From Amoebophrya sp. A120 (taxonomy: Eukaryota > Protista > Dinoflagellata), in NCBI GenBank assembly GCA_905178155.1, contig CAJINV010000004.1, positions 4,195,555 to 4,259,554 on the forward strand: a DNA stretch of 64,000 bases, given 5' to 3'. The translations under genes and the position numbers were made by a program. Of this stretch, positions 21,502 to 36,224 are shown in pieces; the stretch's first letter is position 1, and each line of letters starts with the position of its first letter. The notes below the pieces were generated by a model. The model was not told the origin of the DNA, searched no databases, and saw only the letters and a program-made list of their open reading frames with translations.

Positions 21502-24042
<2,541 letters not shown>

Positions 24043-25557
24043 AGGAGTTTTTACAACCCGTGGGGAGTAAGTCCGGGAGAATGAATATGAATGTCTGAAA
24101 ATGTGATGAATGACGACACTGTCTGTGTCTAAATCAGATTCTTCGACTGACTCCTTGTACAGTCACGTTCGTAAGTGACTTTTTTACGACTTGCGGCACC
24201 AGGTCAACATTACTTTGGAACACTTCGCAAGGATACCGCTAAGAGAACAATCTAAACACTTCTATCATCATGAAAGGGATATTTATCAGGATAAACAAGG
24301 CATCTAAGCTCTCCGCATCAAATAGCGTTCTAAGGATGACGCTGCAACGCTTAAGGAATTCAAGGGAAAAACATACGTATCGATTTTTCATCGAAGGTCA
24401 TTACAAGGAAAAATGGCGCCATAATTGTGTTGATTTTACAGCATAGTTTCACCGAAATAAGCGAGTATACTTTTTGAACGGGTATGCGACCATCTTTTGC
24501 AAGATGGAAGATCTCCTTTGTTGCCATCTTTCTGTCCTCGTCCTTGAATATTTTCCGTGGTTTATTTTCAGCGCGGTGTGTCTGTCAGGCACAGGCTCAG
24601 GAGGTATTTGCAGATTCATGCGCAACTGGATTACCGTGTGTAAACATGAAGGAGGACGGGGATAGACATGGGCAGAGCAAAGAAAGAGCAACCGGAACGG
24701 CATCGTAAAAAGCCTCTGAATATGAAGGCTGACATACTCCAAAGAACAACTTACAGGAAAACCGCACAGAGTGAACGAAAAAGCTCGACAAGCACATATA
24801 CCGACCATTAACACCGGTATTGGAATTGAATAAAGCAGGGAGTTCTTCAGCGTTATGTAGTGTCCTGCAGCTGTTAATGATATGAGTTGAACCGTTTCTC
24901 CTGGCGCAGTCGATGATGTCCCTCCAGTTGGTGATCATGGTTAAGATCAAGAACTACTCTTTTGTGAAGGTTCCAGCGCCACCAGCAGCTAGATCCATCA
25001 TCGCAAGCTGTACAACTCCCCGACAGCCAAGAGTAGGGTGTCGTCTTCAGATCCTCCTCAAAGTAGATTATGCCAGTCTAGTACTAGGAGTTCTCCTTCT
25101 CGTTTTTCGCACTACATTTGGCGTCGTCATGGGTGATCATTCGTACAACTCACGAACAAGCAGAGGTGATGAAGAGAGAGCTTGTTGTACTAGTAGGGCT
25201 TCTTCATGTACAATAGACCATCCCCAGCTCGGCTAGTCGTCTCCAGAACTATGTCCTATAGTTAAGCTTAAGACAGAAGTAGCTTAGTAGTTAGAAGCTG
25301 ACTATAGAGGTTTCCTCCTCCTCCTCATGTACAATAGACCATAACGGACAGCGACAGCAAGGGCGTATGAGCGTTTTCTGTGCGAATATTTCTTGAGCCA
25401 GCAACTCTTACAAGTCCAACGCGAACCCAACTGGCTGTGGCAGATTTACGAAAATTTACCCGTGATATGCGAAGCGTTGGATTGATCACTAGCACCAAGT
25501 AGTCAGCATCTGTAGCAGCAGCAGAACCACGATCTTAATTTCACGACCCGGCAACTC

Positions 25558-28119
25558 ATGTCAGAAATTGACCTAAGTGAGTACTACAGGGTCTGCGAAG
25601 CGGACCCGACACAGATGACGCCTGCATGGCTCTTCAGCGTTCTGGAGAAGGTGCATTTTCCACCTGAGAAGGACTGCAACACCCGGAAAGCCACGCCGGC
25701 CGGACAGTACTTCACACTGGGGTGCGTGCCGGTCTACAATAACGGCGCCGCAGCCGTGTCGAAGGAGACGCGCAGCCGCACGATGTTGACGTGCATTCTG
25801 ACGGCGTACGGGCGACGTATGTTGGGCGAAGCGGTCGATTTCAGCTCCGTCCAGGTCAACAAGGACGCGCCGGCGGCCCTGCACGTTGACGGGCGTAACG
25901 AATCTCCTGTGCGCGCCGTCGCCCTGGTCGACGAATCGCAATGGGGCACCAACGAGGAGTCTCCGGAAGGGAACACTTGGGTTGCGGATGACCAACACGG
26001 GGCGGACTTGTATTGTGGTCCGCTTCAAACCGGAGGTGAACGTGAACAACTACCCGCGCGGCCGCAGAATATTAAAGCGGGCATGATGGCGGCATTTCCC
26101 GGACGCGTCATTGATTTGAAGAACAAACTTGGCGTTTTTGATGGCTCCAAGATGCACACGACGATTCCGTACGGTTGTAGCCACTACATTCGGCGGCTCG
26201 GGGGCCCGAACGGATTCACAAAGCCGTCGTTGGCAGATCGTGGTGTGAAAATCGTTGATGAAGTGAAAAATATTTCCGATAAGCCGGACACTGTTAGTCC
26301 TAGTACAAACAGCAGTGCGAAAAAGAAATCGAAAAGAGAAGCATCTCGTCCTCACGCGCCTCGACGGTATTTTCTGTCGTTTTACACCCACACGAGCGTG
26401 CGGAAACTTAGCGAGGCGGACCGGGACGAGCTCGCGAAACTGGGATTCCGACTGCCGAGTAGGCAAGAGGCAGGGACGATGAAAATAAATCAAGAGGGTA
26501 GAAGTGATACAGGAACATTATCGATCGATGGTGATCGTGGAACAAAGGACCACCGTTCGGCCCGCGACGATCATGATGCCCTCGCGACTGGAGACGAAAC
26601 TTCCAGCCAGACAGGCTCCACCGCGGGTGAGGCTGCGGCACAGGAGGAGGAAGAAGACTATTCCGGCGAAATTTTGATTGCCCAAATTCGGCAGCGTATC
26701 GCAACAGATCTAGAGATGGCAGAAGTCGAAGTGGTATCGTCCCCTCCTGCTAGTTATTCCCAATCCTCATCTTCTAGTAGTGGCGCGGCGAAAAGGCGTC
26801 GGAAAGCTGACGGTGCAGCTTTTTCTGACACTGAAGCTGTTGGTGAAGATGAGCTAATATCAGAAGCTTCCGTAGCGGTGCCAGGCCGGTTCGAGTTTGT
26901 CGACGAGGAAGGTGTGTCCGAGGAAGGCACCAGAACGAGTCAAAGTGTCCTTGATGAAGTAACGATGCCGGCGATCTCATCTTCGCGGAAGCGCAAGAAT
27001 GAAAAAGAGCACGTTGATATTTTGCCGCCCTCGCTTCGCTGCCCGAGGCCGACAAAGCACTGTATCTGCGGCGTGGCCATTTCCGGAAAGGGGTCCATTG
27101 CTGGTTCCTTGGTTGCAGCTTGTTTTGTGATACCTCCAGGTCGTGCAGAAAAAGACGACACTTGGGGCACGGGCGTGGTCAACCCTCTCAGCCTTCCGAA
27201 GAAAAAACGGGAAGCGGTATTCAAGAAGCTAACAGGCCCTGGAAGCAGCACCGGCATCGGTAGGATCCGCGTTGCGGAGCTGGATACGAAGTTTGGTGGA
27301 GCGAACGATCAGGCTGTGCAGGCGGCCGTAAAGAAATGCGTCGAGGACGTGGAGCGCACACGTGGGCTTCGGATCACCAAGGTACTTACTTACACAACTA
27401 CATGACGAGCACTTCGATTAATATGGTGGCCTTTTCATCATGTCCAGTTGCCAGCAGGACGCCGTCGTCCGGAGGTCGGGTTATTGATATGTCTAAACAA
27501 AAGCAATCGGTTCGCCTCCGGGCTAATTGAAGGAACAAGATGAATAAAAATAGCGCTGCATGATCATGCAAAAAACTCTGCTGACTTACAGGTACTAATA
27601 GCCAATCCGGACCACTATGTTCCTGACTCGCTCCGGACCCGCAAAGACTTACGGGTCGAAAGGGGATGTCACAATGAGGACTTCGTAGTGGCTGCCGCGA
27701 AGTTTTTGTCAAAGGTGACTCATGACGAGGAGTTCAAGAAAATGGCAACGGACTTTCCCGCGTATCAGTTTGCTAAAAACAATGGCTATGTTTCATCGAA
27801 GGCGCATCAAGACGCCCTCTCAGAGCTCGGGCCGTGCTTGTATCATCGCAAATGCACCAGACCTGTGCAAAACGCCATGATCGCGAGGGATGCTGGACGA
27901 AAAGAAAAAACATCCGAAAAAGATACTGGGACTAAGCAGGCAGCGAAGCCGCCGCCTGGCGGAAAGGAGAAAAAAAATCACGTCCTTGTTGCTAAAAAAG
28001 CGAAGCTGGTTACTTCGGCCAGCAAAGGATTCAGCGCTGCGATAGGTGCTGCGAAGATGTTGAAGTCCACCGCGCATAAAAATGTGCCAGTGGCGAATGC
28101 TTATGGGGGGACAAACTAG
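25558..28119 (+). CDS. Fusion: TET/JBP-like 2OG-Fe(II) dioxygenase domain + acidic linker + inactive RNase HII-like domain (exons 25558-27381, 27592-28119)
   Basis: FSSVQVN...LHVDGRN (HxDxxN), FDGSKMHTT, RYFLSFYTH; RNase HII-like CGVAISGKGSIAGSLVAA, KKREAVF, VAAAKFLSKVTHD, FPAYQFAKNNGY, HQDALSELGPCLYHRK. Confidence 0.75.
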
Positions 28120-30602
28120 GGGCGACGAACTGAGAACGGCCTTTTTTCGAGGCTTAGATATAGCGGGTTTTTGGCGAATTGCCCACTTTCGGGGAAGCTC
28201 AGGCGAGGCCCCCAGCGTCTAGTTTTTGCGCAATAGCAGCGGCCTAATGCGCCGAATTCTCTACCTGAAGTTCGCGCCTGCACCACTTGCATTGTTTCGA
28301 AAACGGCGCGGCGCTCGCGCTAGAAATACCTTCTATAGAATATCCGCGCCCATTCCGCCCTAAATATTGAATATCCAGCGCGGTATCCTATATCCACGCC
28401 GTCCCGTCGTGGATATACACCGGGGGGGCGTAATATTTTATAAAATGACTTCCGCCGATTTGGCTCCGGAAATGGTTGCCATGGACACAGAAAGTAAATC
28501 CGTGCGCGTGCATTTGGGCGCGCTGGCGAACCAAAAAAATCAAGCAACCCAAGAAATCGAGCCTATATCTAGACGCAAAAAAAAGGCCATTCTCAGTTCG
28601 TTTCCGAATTTTGTCCCCCCATACGAATGCTATCGCGATGAAGAAGAGCACCATCAAGGTGGTGAAGAAGTAGTGTACTCTCGTCTGCAAACTCCACGCA
28701 CCAGCGCGAGGCATTGTAAACACCAAGAATCGTGACAACTACATAGGTCCTTACATATTCCACACTAATTATTTTTCGACAGTTTTCCTTGGCCTGAAGC
28801 TGATTCATTGACGCATGCGACATCCACGTAAAACGAGCTCTGAAGACAACGCACGACTTCTCAGTGTTTGATGGGCGGTTCAAGTACTTAAGTAGGTTCC
28901 GAGAAGGATTTAATAGAACTCGTCTGTGTTCCATCGTTGAAAGGAGATACAATACTTAGTTTCTGCACTGGTCGTTCTTGTTGACCGAGTTCCTGAGCCT
29001 ACTAGCTGCGTTTTTTTCACTACTCCGAGCGCGAGCACGGCCGGGCCCGAGCGAGAATATTCCAAAGGATGCCTGTCTCCGATGTTAAGGGGTGTACGAC
29101 CTGTTCGAGGGATAAAGATATGAGGTGGCAGATTTTTGAGAGGACTGCGGTTGCAGTCGTATGTTCTGGTAAGAGGTGAAGATACGACAGGAGAGAAGAA
29201 AATAATAAGGAGCAACAAGAATTACTGGTGCTCGCGTAGAAGGTCCAATCCAAATCAAAGCGCACTCAATATGGCAAACAACTTCGACTCTGCAACCACT
29301 TTTCGCTCCCGTACCTACTGGGTTGTAGCTTCACGGTAGAGCCGCGAGATAGAGGCCCACTGAGATTTACGAACAAGATGGCGTGGCGCTGATGTTGCGC
29401 AGCAGCCCTTCGACGAAATATTTGGAGTGTGTCGCAGTTGGGTTTTGCGAGGCCGAGGAGATTCAAGGTGGCGGGGTTCCGTGTGTGTTTTGCTTGGCCA
29501 AGGGGCTGCGCGCGCGTTGATGAAAAGGGGCGCGCGCACCAGGACACGAGTCAGCGGGCCGGCCTGTGGCGCCGAATGCAGTCAGGCTGCCCTGCTAGTT
29601 CAGCAGACCTTCACCGCGCAGCATTCAATCGCCAAACAAGGAAGTGCAGGACCGGCCGCCTGCGCTCCAAAAACACGCAACCCGTTGCCCGCGCCAAATC
29701 GCTACCGCTAGCGCCCCGCGGCAGTCGCCTGGCCGTAATCTGCCCCCTTTAACCGGGCGGACCGCCCGAATTTCTCCGCCCCTGTGCGCAGCAGTATGCC
29801 GCCGGGCCGCGCCTACCCTTCGTTCTGGGGGGGAAAACAGGCGGGCGGTGGGCACAAAGCCGCCGCCGCCCGGCCCAGCCAACCTCGCACCTTCGCGCCG
29901 CCCTTGCTGAGCAAGGCGGCAACGGAGGAAAGCGCTGGGCGTGTTGTTGTGGCCGCGCGCCATGCGGTCACCCACCCAGCCAAGCGCGTGGGGCCTTTCT
30001 TTCGTTGGCCGCCTGCTCAGTTGGTTCGCTCGCTTTTTGCTGTTGCCCAGGGCGGACAAAGCCGCCCGCCCGGGTTTGGCGCCCGCCGGCCCCCTTTCCT
30101 GACGAGACGGGTGTTTTACCCGCCGAAAATGCGAAGGGGCTGGCCGCTGGCAGCGTGGGGGTGGGACGGGAGCTGTTTTCCCGAACCGGCTCTGTGTCGC
30201 AGGGGCGGAGCTGTCTCTGCCTGCTTTGCATTTGCAAACTGTTGTGGTGCGTGCCGCACTTTGTTCAAATGGATGCCGGCTGAGGAGTGTCTGGGCCACC
30301 AGAGTGTTTAGCCTAGAGAGGGCGCGCCGCGTACGTAAGCATGGTTTCGGATGAGTTGCAGTTCCTAGCATCAAATCTAGAAACAAAAGATAGCGCCGGT
30401 GACCGTGGTTCCGGTTCGCGATCGATGAGAGGCGAAGTTGAATGTTGAGGATGAGCTGTTCTGCGTAGTTCGCGCCGGATCATATCCCTCTCCAACCAGC
30501 GATCATGAAGTTAAAGACCGAGGAGTCTACTTCTAGACAAAAAGTAGGGGATCTCACGTTCATCATCCGACTGCAATAACGAAGATATCAGAATCGACGA
30601 AG

Positions 30603-33113: not shown

Positions 33114-33661
33114 GATCAGTGTTGAGCAATTTCCTGAGACTCCCCTTGTTGTGCGGAAGTACTTCATTCTCGTCTGCACGCAACTTGTATACCATCTGAC
33201 GTCTTCGTTCCTCTTTGGGGGTTTGGGGGTGAGAGTGTCAGTCAATGACTAGGAGGCCATGAATGGTGCGCGTGTTCTGGAGCGCTAAAAATGAGAGACG
33301 AATTGAGCTGCATGTTGAGCACGCAGTTAAACCCATACCGAGAATGAGGACAGAGCCAGCAACTTTTAATCAAATGCAGCTCCCGCAAATCGACGAGAAT
33401 TTGGACTAGCAGAAGCTGAAAAAGCAAATTAAGGGCTGTGAGTGTCGAGCGCAGCTCGCAGCAGCTGGTCCGCCGCAAGACTTGAAACGATTATCAGAAA
33501 TGAAAGTTCGAGAGCCCCATGTCACACTACAAAAAATATTCGCATCTGTAGCAAGCATTGCATCGGCCAAACATGAGCTACGGGGGCAGGGACGCGTTTG
33601 AAAATACTAAACGCCCTCCACGACACGCACATGAATTCTGTGCTGTTATGAAAAACAAACT

Positions 33662-36224
33662 ATGACCGAAACGACCGGCAGTGTGACGGAGCTACGGCGA
33701 AGCCAGCACTTCCGCTACACGGACCGCAGTCGCGTGTTGTCCAGCCGAAATCAATCTCCGGAACAAGAGGGTCGTGCAGTGCGAGTTTCACAACGAAAGT
33801 CTCGCTTTACGACAAGAATAAGAATAGCAGCGATGGCGAGTGAGACTGTGGAGATGATGGCGTCGATCCTGCGAGGTGGAACTGAAGATGACGAGCCGAT
33901 GAAAACGAGGCGGATGAAGAATGACAACTTCTCTCATCTCTTTCCAGAGCAGCTGAGGGCGCTTTTCCAAAAACCAGGACAGCTCAGCACTCACTGCAGC
34001 GCCCTGACTCCTGGAGATGAGAGTTTTTGGAAAATTCTAGACCGAAGCTGTAGTTTTAAGACGACGCAAAAGACCTCGCGCGCCAGCAGCACGACCAGCA
34101 CACCCGGTAAAGCGGCGTCCTTTTTCCTCGCCATCCTGCTTTTTGTCGAGCTCCTCACGACCCTGCTTCACCAGGCCGCCGCACTGAAAGTAACCGCGAA
34201 GGTCGGTCGGAAGGTGTACGACGAGGCAGCGATGGCGCGGCGGATGCTGGAGGAGCGAGTTCAATTAGTCTACGGCTCCCTGTCCGTGGGCGATCCGCCC
34301 CAGAAGTTCACCGTCGCCTTTGACACGGGGTCGTCGGAGCTGGTGTTACCCTGCTCATCCTGTACAACCGGCAGCTGCATTTCGCACACGCGGTATGATT
34401 TACTGCAATCCGCGACCGGCAGCCAGATTTTCACCACCAACGTCGCCGGGAAACAGGTAGCAGAAACGGAAACGCGGATTTTCGGCATGCAGGGTGTGGC
34501 CAAAGCCAACCCGATGCGGGACAAGATCTGTATTGGCAACCCCCCACCGGCAGACGAAACCACCGCCTCCAGCGCCGACGCCGCTGCCCCGTCTTCGCTC
34601 TGTCTGCCGGAAGCCGCGCCGTTTCTGTGCGCCAACTCCTTGTCGGAAAACTTGTTCGGCCAGCTGCCGTACGACGGGGTCCTCGGGCTGGGACTGTCGG
34701 GGGCGAAAAAATCCAAGTACGACCTGTTCCAAGGGTTGATAGACGCCGGCATGCTAAAAACGGACCGGTTTGCGCTGTGGTACAGCGATTTGACGGACGA
34801 AGGGGCGGCGAACACGATCACCTTCGGAGAGCACGACAGAACCAAAATGGCCAGCAAGATGTACTGGGTAAGACAAGTGATTATATTCAGAAAGCTCTTC
34901 AACAACTGAGTTTATGATCTTGATGATAGCACTTCTTGTTCAACATCACCCACGATCAGAACTCAACTAGGGCACAACTTTCATTCCTTGACATTCCTAC
35001 GGCTACATCATTTCAAGTATTAAACGCAGCTTCCCGTTCCCTACCCCGCGACCTCCTGGGCTATGCCGATGACGGATGTGGTGGTGGGCCGCTTCATCAC
35101 GGCCGTTCCGGCTGCGTCCGCAGACGACGGTTCCGCCGATAGTGCCGCCAGCACCGGCGCGCCGGGAGGTGCGGAAGCGGCAGCAGGAGGTACAAGTGCG
35201 ACCGCGGATGGCGCGAACGCCGACGCCGAGGACAATTCCGGCAAAAGTTTCATGTCGGAACCGCTGCGGCTGTGCGAAGCGCCGCAGACCTGCAAGGTGG
35301 CGTTTGATAGCGCGAGCCCGCTGATCGTGCTCTCGCAGCTATGCATTGCAAAAGTATCGTACTAGTAGGAATTGCATTACAAATTTCCTCAGCATGAGAA
35401 ATAAAATTTGTGATGCGGATTTAGCGTGAAAAAGAAATTTGTAATGCATGAGTGGGATTAATACTACGAGTGCGATACTTTTGCAATGCATAGCAGCCGA
35501 TCTACGACAAGGTGAAGGAGTCCATCGCCGTGGGGTTTCCACAACAACCCTATCCTGTGCAAAAGTATCGTACTCGTATTGCAATCATGCATTACAAATC
35601 ATTCGGTTTTAGGTAAATCCGCATTACAAATTTTATCCCTCATGCTGAGGAAATTTTTCGTAAATGCATTTACACGAGTGCGATACTTTTGCAATGCATA
35701 AACCCGTGACCGACACGAAACTGGCGGACTGCCAGCCGCTGCTGATGAAGATGCCGAAGATCGGGATTCAGCTACGAGGGATAACATTCTTCCTCGATGC
35801 CGAGGACTACGTGGACCGCAGCAACGGGATGTGTGTGTACCGCTTCCAGCCCATGGAGAGCGACGAAAACCTGATTTACCTCGGCGCGCCCTGGTTCGAG
35901 AAGTTTTACACGGTGTTCGACCGAAGCTCCCTAAAAATCGGCCTGGCGCTGAGCAAGCACGTAGGTGTTCGGGGGGCGGAGTACAGTGGAAGCACCGGGG
36001 TGCCGGAGGACGCCATTGAGGATTTGGAGAAAGTTACGACGACAACGAGTACGACGACGGATAGTGGTGGCAGTGTTTCATCAGATGTTGGAGCAAATGC
36101 CGCCGCTGACACTACAACCAGTGTGGACAGTGCGTCAAGTGGTACTTCTGCTGATGTTGGAACAACAGCAGCTGCTGCGCCAGCAACCTCCGCACAGGCA
36201 ACCGCCGCGTCGGTGACAAGGTGA
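33662..36224 (+). CDS. Pepsin-like (A1) aspartic protease with hydrophobic signal/anchor; start uncertain
   Basis: YGSLSVGDPPQKFTVAFDTGSSELVLP, YDGVLGLG, second motif VAFDSASPL, YLGAPWFEKFYTVFDR; GT-AG intron 34868-35029 and 2 introners. Confidence 0.9.
35340..35492. mobile_element. Introner family A
   Basis: TSD gcagc. Confidence 0.9.
35551..35700. mobile_element. Introner family A (opposite orientation to 35340)
   Basis: TSD aaccc. Confidence 0.9.

Follow-up and report, generated by a model that had tools for sequence, protein, structure and literature searches.

The window, the whole 64-kb stretch of DNA that was analysed, contains on its forward strand a gene whose predicted product joins a TET/JBP-like dioxygenase domain to a bacterial-type RNase HII domain without catalytic carboxylates. 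All features described here lie on that strand, and coordinates are positions in the window. The coding part of exon 1 (25558..27381, residues 1–608) is an open frame of 608 codons, covered by RNA-like contigs, and encodes the dioxygenase domain, an acidic linker and the first half of the pseudo-RNase HII. Intron 1 (27382..27591) is 210 nt long with GT..AG ends. Exon 2 (27592..28100) encodes the second half of the pseudo-RNase HII and the start of a lysine-rich tail, and is separated by the introner-like intron 2 (28101..28627; 527 nt, TT..AA ends) from the coding part of exon 3 (28628..28673), which is defined by contigs and the joined translation. Exon 3 supplies the end of the basic tail and the stop codon at 28671–28673, so that the joined exons give a protein of 792 residues with the C-terminus ...VANAAIAMKKSTIKVVKK.

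Transcript and gene model

The first-pass annotation, made from the sequence alone, ended the gene at 28119. This position falls inside intron 2, the removal of which drops the YGGTN-stop read there, and the true end is at 28673. The motifs quoted in that annotation do share one frame: HVDGRN begins at residue 109, FDGSKMHTT at 194, RYFLSFYTH at 270 and GVAISGKG at 505, followed by NPL at 542, VLIAN at 609 and RGC at 632.

Both introns are skipped in contigs from runs X3 and X5, which represent one sample, and the proposed junction 27381/27592 is thereby borne out. The two runs are taken as RNA on an automated guess, none of the runs listed being on record as RNA; they are RNA-like in their spliced joints and in the zero depth of the flanking bins 24834–25167 and 29009–29342. 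A contig of 2335 nt consists of 25783–27379, 27590–28100 and 28628–28854 and therefore represents a single transcript carrying the oxidase residues H109, D111, H200 and R270 together with the whole RNase HII domain. Thus the two domains are not products of separate transcripts. The transcript reaches at least position 28854, where the contig ends.

The public gene model GSA120T00000638001 describes an unnamed 717-residue protein of Amoebophrya sp. A120, which corresponds to residues 76–792. It lacks the first 75 residues (25558–25782), and with them conserved segments of the oxidase fold that were modelled with confidence. The upstream methionine at 25558 is favoured over the annotated start, because the related protein P0004 aligns from its own start methionine, because residues 1–75 hold helices and strands modelled confidently by AF2, and because separate X3 and X5 contigs lie over 25449–25717. 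Among the contigs listed for these runs, none joins residues 1–75 to the remainder. Two further raw-read runs, X9 and X10, yielded 2 reads and 0 reads, too few to bear on the gene model.

Intron 2 has a perfect 14-nt terminal inverted repeat, and its inverted repeats span 28097–28115/28610–28628 and 28125–28163/28563–28601. It fits the description of the non-canonical introner elements with terminal inverted repeats reported from Amoebophrya (PMC7789003; here and below, PMC numbers refer to the available portions of each paper). Elsewhere in the window, an exon of a lactate/malate dehydrogenase at 23273–23533 adjoins the region, an aspartyl protease exon occupies 33635–34906, and the segment 6001–10000 has 61% GC, a strong T skew and repetitive-looking frames. 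The dehydrogenase and protease exons have no functional link to the fusion gene and no synteny with the metagenome locus L001 described below.

An oxidase domain closest in fold to TET enzymes

Residues 1–300 (25558..26457) form a TET/JBP-like 2OG-Fe(II) dioxygenase domain, as indicated by AF2, VIA, Foldseek and conserved residues. The AF2 model, calculated with a 37-row alignment, has a pLDDT of 80 and a pTM of 0.78, with disordered insertions at 157–175 and 227–253. In VIA the top structural match is NgTET1 (Z 10.9, rmsd 3.2, 159 residues aligned), followed by TET2 and ALKBH3, tied at Z 9.5, and a prolyl hydroxylase at 9.3; the lead of the TET over ALKBH3 and the prolyl hydroxylases is a modest 1.4–1.6 Z. 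TET2 occupies ranks 1–3 in Foldseek (best E 2e-5) and ALKBH5 comes next (1e-4). The domain thus models as the oxygenase fold that had been predicted for it.

The putative iron ligands are H109 (25882), D111 (25888) and H200 (26155), and R270 (26365) is the predicted 2OG-binding arginine; these roles were assigned by motif rather than by superposition. In the alignment all four residues are common to the four fusion proteins described below, the oxidase-only paralogue P0007 and four viral rows. The motifs HVDGRN and RYFLSFYTH, on which the TET-like reading was founded, are present in the A120 protein, but N114 and H278 within them are not conserved in the other three fusions.

The A120 protein has no match to the Pfam family Tet_JBP (PF12851) and is therefore classed as TET/JBP-like rather than as a member of that family. 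Tet_JBP matches are weak in the 4 of 37 oxidase-family members that have them. The best relative, L021, reaches 20.6 bits against a cut-off of 34.9. PDB sequence and profile searches, NCBIfam and PHROGs gave no match for the N-terminal domain. The top ESM Atlas matches, which serve as a lead only, are unnamed viral clusters (0.94), and Tet_JBP follows at 0.87.

Conserved features of TETs include a pocket valine and a second arginine that binds 2OG-C1, which is R1261 in TET2 and R224 in NgTET1; the hydrophobic pocket of TET2 is built from Y1902, V1900 and T1372 (PMC8256090). Two residues that are nearly invariant in the family are lost from the fusions. A pocket column that is V or I in 31 of the 32 other family members is S or G, and an N-terminal column that is R in 29 of the 32 is D or K, although R43, four residues further on, is kept in all four fusions. 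The pocket was mapped by spacing only, with TET2 R1896 taken as the presumed counterpart of the distal arginine for the numbering; on this mapping the aromatic residue is kept (Y276; Y/F/F/Y in the fusions) and the valine is replaced by S or G, a change that would enlarge the pocket. The TET/JBP-like assignment stands for the fold and the set of HxD, H and R residues, but not for membership in the Pfam family.

The TET-like ranking is to be weighed against an oxidase that acts not on a pyrimidine but, for example, on an alkylated base or on a protein, or an RNase fold that serves as a protein tether, for instance to the transcription or splicing machinery. ALKBH3, ALKBH6, FTO and prolyl hydroxylases score Z 9.2–9.5 in VIA, and E. 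coli RNase HII occurs in a transcription-coupled repair complex according to the titles of PDB entries 7uwe and 7uwh. However, TETs come first in both structure searches, and the AlkB model is not among the 25 Pfam families listed for the 37 oxidase-family members. AlkB-family enzymes have a second C-terminal arginine six residues after the first; the residue six positions after R270 is Y276, and it is Y, F or W in all aligned rows. The residues retained in the RNase domain are those that contact nucleic acid, which argues against a tether. Such a non-pyrimidine substrate or tether is improbable in our estimate.

The domain belongs to a widespread oxidase family (P0008–P0047, L009–L025; motif FTSIQVNK...HVD..N.G.S) that occurs in dinoflagellates, in marine metagenomes and on small viral contigs and is probably the one described from algae by Iyer et al. 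2009. A HMMER scan of 1.84 billion representative sequences with residues 1–321 gave 45 matches at E ≤0.001, and 41 of them were covered by a Pfam scan (P0036, P0040, P0042 and P0044 were left out). Other named matches come from Karlodinium, Effrenium, Polarella and Gymnodinium. Five of the 37 family members match PHROG 274 (best E 1.6e-6), whose label, 'DNA endonuclease V', may misdescribe the matched domain. No match to the family member P0012 was found in annotated phages.

Viral relatives are related to the fusion clade with a probability of 96% and an E of 2.8e-9 in an hhalign profile match. Eight of the 13 viral loci contain a TET-associated glycosyltransferase (TAGT), a group of enzymes placed with the base-J glucosyltransferase (PMC7968844). 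The TAGT is fused to the oxidase in L020 (3173–4456), L021 (3170–4444) and L023 (2969–4315), adjoins it in L013, L014, L015 and L024, and lies one gene away in L022, where an N6/N4 DNA methylase is positioned between the two. Seven of these eight TAGTs score above the Pfam TAGT cut-off, and the eighth, in L013, was identified by tblastn (E 1e-26). L010 and L014 come from the same contig, as do L012 and L015. A profile search found no TAGT in the other five viral loci (L016, L017, L018, L019 and L025). Among virus-like metagenome loci, TAGT is present in L009 and was not found in the short contigs L005–L008. From this linkage it can be inferred that the oxidase family works like TET/JBP enzymes in at least some viruses, and the small viral and virus-like contigs suggest that the DNA of these elements carries a modification resembling base J. 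The TAGT-linked relatives are distant and fall outside the fusion clade in the tree.

The A120 oxidase resembles the TET/JBP dioxygenases (NgTET1, human TET2, kinetoplastid JBP1/2 and phage 5mYOX) in its fold, which is closest to NgTET1 and TET2, in its HxD...H triad and distal arginine, in the aromatic residue six positions after that arginine in all four fusions, and in the linkage of its viral relatives to TAGT. It differs from them in falling below the Tet_JBP model, in the pocket change from valine to S or G, and in its partner, a pseudo-RNase HII.

The oxidase family also has a member, P0020, that is fused to an RNA methyltransferase of RsmB/NOP type. It is conceivable, though rather unlikely, that the A120 protein modifies RNA, with the pseudo-nuclease gripping either structured RNA or a hybrid through its RNA strand while the oxidase hydroxylates a methylated RNA base. 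A shift to RNA has been described in at least one TET/JBP clade (PMC4738411), and an enlarged pocket would be in keeping with such a substrate. However, an RNA-enzyme partner occurs in only one of the 41 Pfam-scanned matches, Tudor or Agenet matches occur in three (two of them weak), and the viral relatives pair with TAGT and once with a DNA methylase.

An RNase HII fold without catalytic acids in four fusion proteins

The RNase HII domain (27031..27873, residues 492–702) is split by intron 1. Its assignment rests on the AF2 model (pLDDT 86, pTM 0.85), Foldseek and a table of aligned residues. The annotated spliced product scores 46.7 bits with Pfam RNase_HII, for which the cut-off is 25.8. 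The best fold matches are the RNase HII enzymes of T. maritima, E. coli and S. aureus (E 1e-13 to 1e-11, TM ≤0.73), with E 1.2e-13 and TM 0.70 for T. maritima RNase H2. The bacterial rnhB model matches with E 2e-23, against E 1e-4 for TIGR00729, and in the related fusion P0006 bacterial PDB chains outrank archaeal ones. The fold model with its Foldseek matches, the rnhB profile and the ranking of PDB chains agree that the domain is of the bacterial type, as the first reading of the sequence had it.

RNase_HII was present in four of the 41 Pfam-scanned oxidase matches: the A120 protein and the relatives P0004 (885 residues), P0005 (694) and P0006 (867), which are 38%, 45% and 39% identical to the A120 protein over the matched stretches. 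The search for the same fusion elsewhere thus added three more. The oxidase cores of the four are 45–56% identical. P0004 is an intronless frame in L001, a metagenome locus that looks like an intron-bearing eukaryotic contig; its neighbours there appear to contain introns, and one of them resembles a PPPDE peptidase weakly (E 3e-4, below the cut-off). No synteny beyond the fusion gene itself was found between L001 and the A120 window. TcdB_toxin_midN and BPA_C matches in P0006 have E values of about 0.03 and were rejected as chance.

In a 41-row oxidase tree the four fusions cluster together (83/69; as a single group in 86% of bootstrap trees), and P0007 (CAD7949191.1) joins them at 100/98. 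P0007 is an A120 paralogue of the same oxidase clade; it has a different C-terminal region without a Pfam match. The sequences are compatible with a single origin of the fusion but do not prove it. The fusion clade is set apart from the widespread family by its insertions, altered pocket residues and long branch of its own. A word-index search with residues 1–320 matched only the A120 gene itself; with the fusion alignment it recovered at least two of the four fusions and an unfused red-algal RNase HII, so that the fusion may well be more widespread than these four proteins show. The unfused RNase HII P0053 of Pyropia yezoensis keeps the acids and has R22 replaced by V and Y163 by H. A metagenome scan (43 of 64 parts) contained at least one fusion locus, L001, and no fusion was found in viral contigs or prokaryote genome contigs.

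Residues of the RNase domain were compared in T. maritima numbering (PMC3025331) with four canonical sequences as guides. In the A120 protein, D18 is replaced by A507, E19 by I508, D107 by A612 and D124 by H635, as the loss of every catalytic acid proposed from the motifs had implied. For the change from KGD to RGC the absence of an acid holds, but in the register set by K138 the D124 position is H635 rather than C634. The carboxylates of an active RNase HII are missing from all four fusions, in which D18 is A/A/S/S, E19 is I/F/F/V, D107 is A/C/C/N and D124 is H/H/K/H. The A120 copy is thus not alone in its loss, contrary to what would be expected if one copy were merely decaying and its orthologues kept the acids.

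The four fusions all retain five residues that recognise or support the ribose and backbone, namely G21, G23, K138, Y163 and R182 (G510, G512, K649, Y674 and R694 in A120). R22 is K/Y/Y/Y, the DSK loop is altered, and D45 is kept only in P0006. Position 122 is K in two fusions, and K47 is L/R/R/R, which leaves a basic residue in three of the four (L544 in A120). All four fusions have a histidine instead of R141, the arginine that supports the GRG loop. The histidines at the D124 and R141 positions (H635 at 27670 and H652 at 27721, with A612 at 27601) could form a new site. The fusions thus share with the bacterial enzymes (T. maritima 3O3F, E. coli 7UWE) the whole two-part fold, at TM 0.70–0.73, and these five residues, and differ in the lost carboxylates, in the changes of R22 to K or Y and R141 to H, and in being fused and eukaryotic.

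Of the 70 columns without variation among the four canonical enzymes, 18 are unchanged throughout the fusions and 52 are not. None of the six catalytic or DSK positions is kept, as against five of eight substrate-contact positions and 13 of the 56 other columns. The enrichment of contact residues has a p of 0.034, or 0.12 without glycines, with four references and fusions that are not independent of each other. Among the fusions, the RNase domain is 30–52% identical and the linker 19–31%, and 45 of 211 columns are invariant in the RNase domain, compared with 3 of 166 in the linker. Therefore the RNase fold appears to have been maintained without catalysis, and the loss of the acids together with the retention of G21, G23, K138, Y163 and R182 in four proteins points to a maintained pseudo-nuclease.

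Decay of the domain is accordingly unlikely as judged from these sequences. That the fusion arose by chance and that its C-terminal domain is a decaying, functionless remnant of an RNase HII draws some support from the A120 RNase domain being the most divergent of the four (30–37% identity to the others). However, the same acids are lost from an intact fold in four proteins with well-conserved oxidase cores, the invariant columns are concentrated in the RNase domain rather than the linker, and the gene is spliced in frame; we give such a remnant hardly any weight.

In T. maritima RNase H2 the 2'-OH is sensed by the backbone amides of G21, R22 and G23 and by the hydroxyl of Y163; RNase H3 lacks Y163, which selects junctions, and the mutation R22A hardly alters activity (PMC3025331). 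The loss of the R22 side chain may therefore be tolerable. At the sequence level, each of the four fusions retains the junction-sensor residues G21, G23 and Y163 and has a changed side chain at R22.

The domain is connected to the oxidase by an acidic low-complexity linker (26458..27030, residues 301–491) with 40 D+E and 21 K+R. Its basic clusters, KRRRK at 412 and RKRK at 477, are possible nuclear localisation signals. The tail (residues 703–792) has 22 K+R and 5 D+E, and tails rich in K and R are present in all four fusions.

These features also suit a general binder of duplex or fork DNA without a preference for RNA, which together with the basic tail would load the oxidase for bulk or transposon-directed oxidation of thymine or 5mC. 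R22 has become Y or K, R141 has become H and the DSK loop has been rebuilt; G21, G23 and Y163 may serve folding, the enrichment of contact residues is not significant without glycines, and the basic tails are common to the four proteins. Nevertheless, the junction-selecting Y163 is kept in all four although most of the canonical-invariant columns have changed, and we consider a general binder somewhat unlikely.

Possible guidance of base oxidation by RNA:DNA hybrids

The reading that we prefer, with a probability of roughly 0.4, is that the fusion protein hydroxylates a 5-methylpyrimidine, probably thymine, in DNA under the guidance of RNA:DNA hybrids or RNA-DNA junctions. The dead RNase HII would clamp a hybrid or a junction without cleaving it, and the oxidase would reach the displaced or adjacent strand over the linker of about 190 residues and convert thymine to 5-hydroxymethyluracil (5hmU) in nearby DNA. 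The basic tail may provide an additional non-specific grip on nucleic acid. The acidic N-terminus, the basic clusters and the lysine-rich tail would be in keeping with a nuclear location. The elements that read the 2'-OH, G21, G23 and Y163, are among those retained, which indirectly supports the reader-writer proposed in the first-pass annotation. The diverged oxidase pocket, the missing Tet_JBP match and the weak retention statistics speak against this reading.

Two dinoflagellate thymidine hydroxylases, CryTJ1 and AmpTJ1, make 5hmU, and CryTJ1 of Crypthecodinium makes no 5hmC and prefers single-stranded DNA (PMC11572971). By description, the A120 oxidase is like them a TET/JBP-like dinoflagellate enzyme with HxD and H...R residues. 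If the A120 family is akin to CryTJ1, such a preference for single strands would fit well with the strand that an R-loop displaces. There was no report of 5hmU in Amoebophrya among the literature matches listed.

Both domains are of known kinds, and their joining was not found in print. Full-text searches, judged by titles and the starts of abstracts, returned no description of a fusion of a TET-like oxidase with a pseudo-RNase HII, as the first-pass annotation had supposed; older family surveys may list it. The architecture is absent from the available portions of PMC11572971 and its preprint, PMC7789003, PMC3025331, PMC13229309, PMC8256090, PMC7968844, PMC3417536 and PMC4738411. The terms 'RNase H' and 'Amoebophrya' do not occur in the main text of PMC11572971, nor do RNase H and the gene identifier GSA120T00000638001 occur in the supplement of PMC7789003.

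The domain would be a natural RNase HII that does not cut and has been kept by selection. Engineered dead RNase H probes are used for the mapping of R-loops, and the protein described here would be their natural counterpart. Even if the pseudo-nuclease is a generic duplex binder, the fusions represent a distinct TET-like clade with a changed pocket.

Dinoflagellates are rich in 5hmU, and we know of no mechanism by which the modification is aimed in these organisms. The fusion protein is a concrete candidate for such an aiming device in one polypeptide. That a disarmed bacterial RNase HII directs 5hmU, or an oxidised base of another kind, to RNA:DNA hybrids or embedded ribonucleotides is a doubtful proposition at present; if it is true, the DNA of an early-branching dinoflagellate would be marked directly by transcription or RNA-guided pairing.
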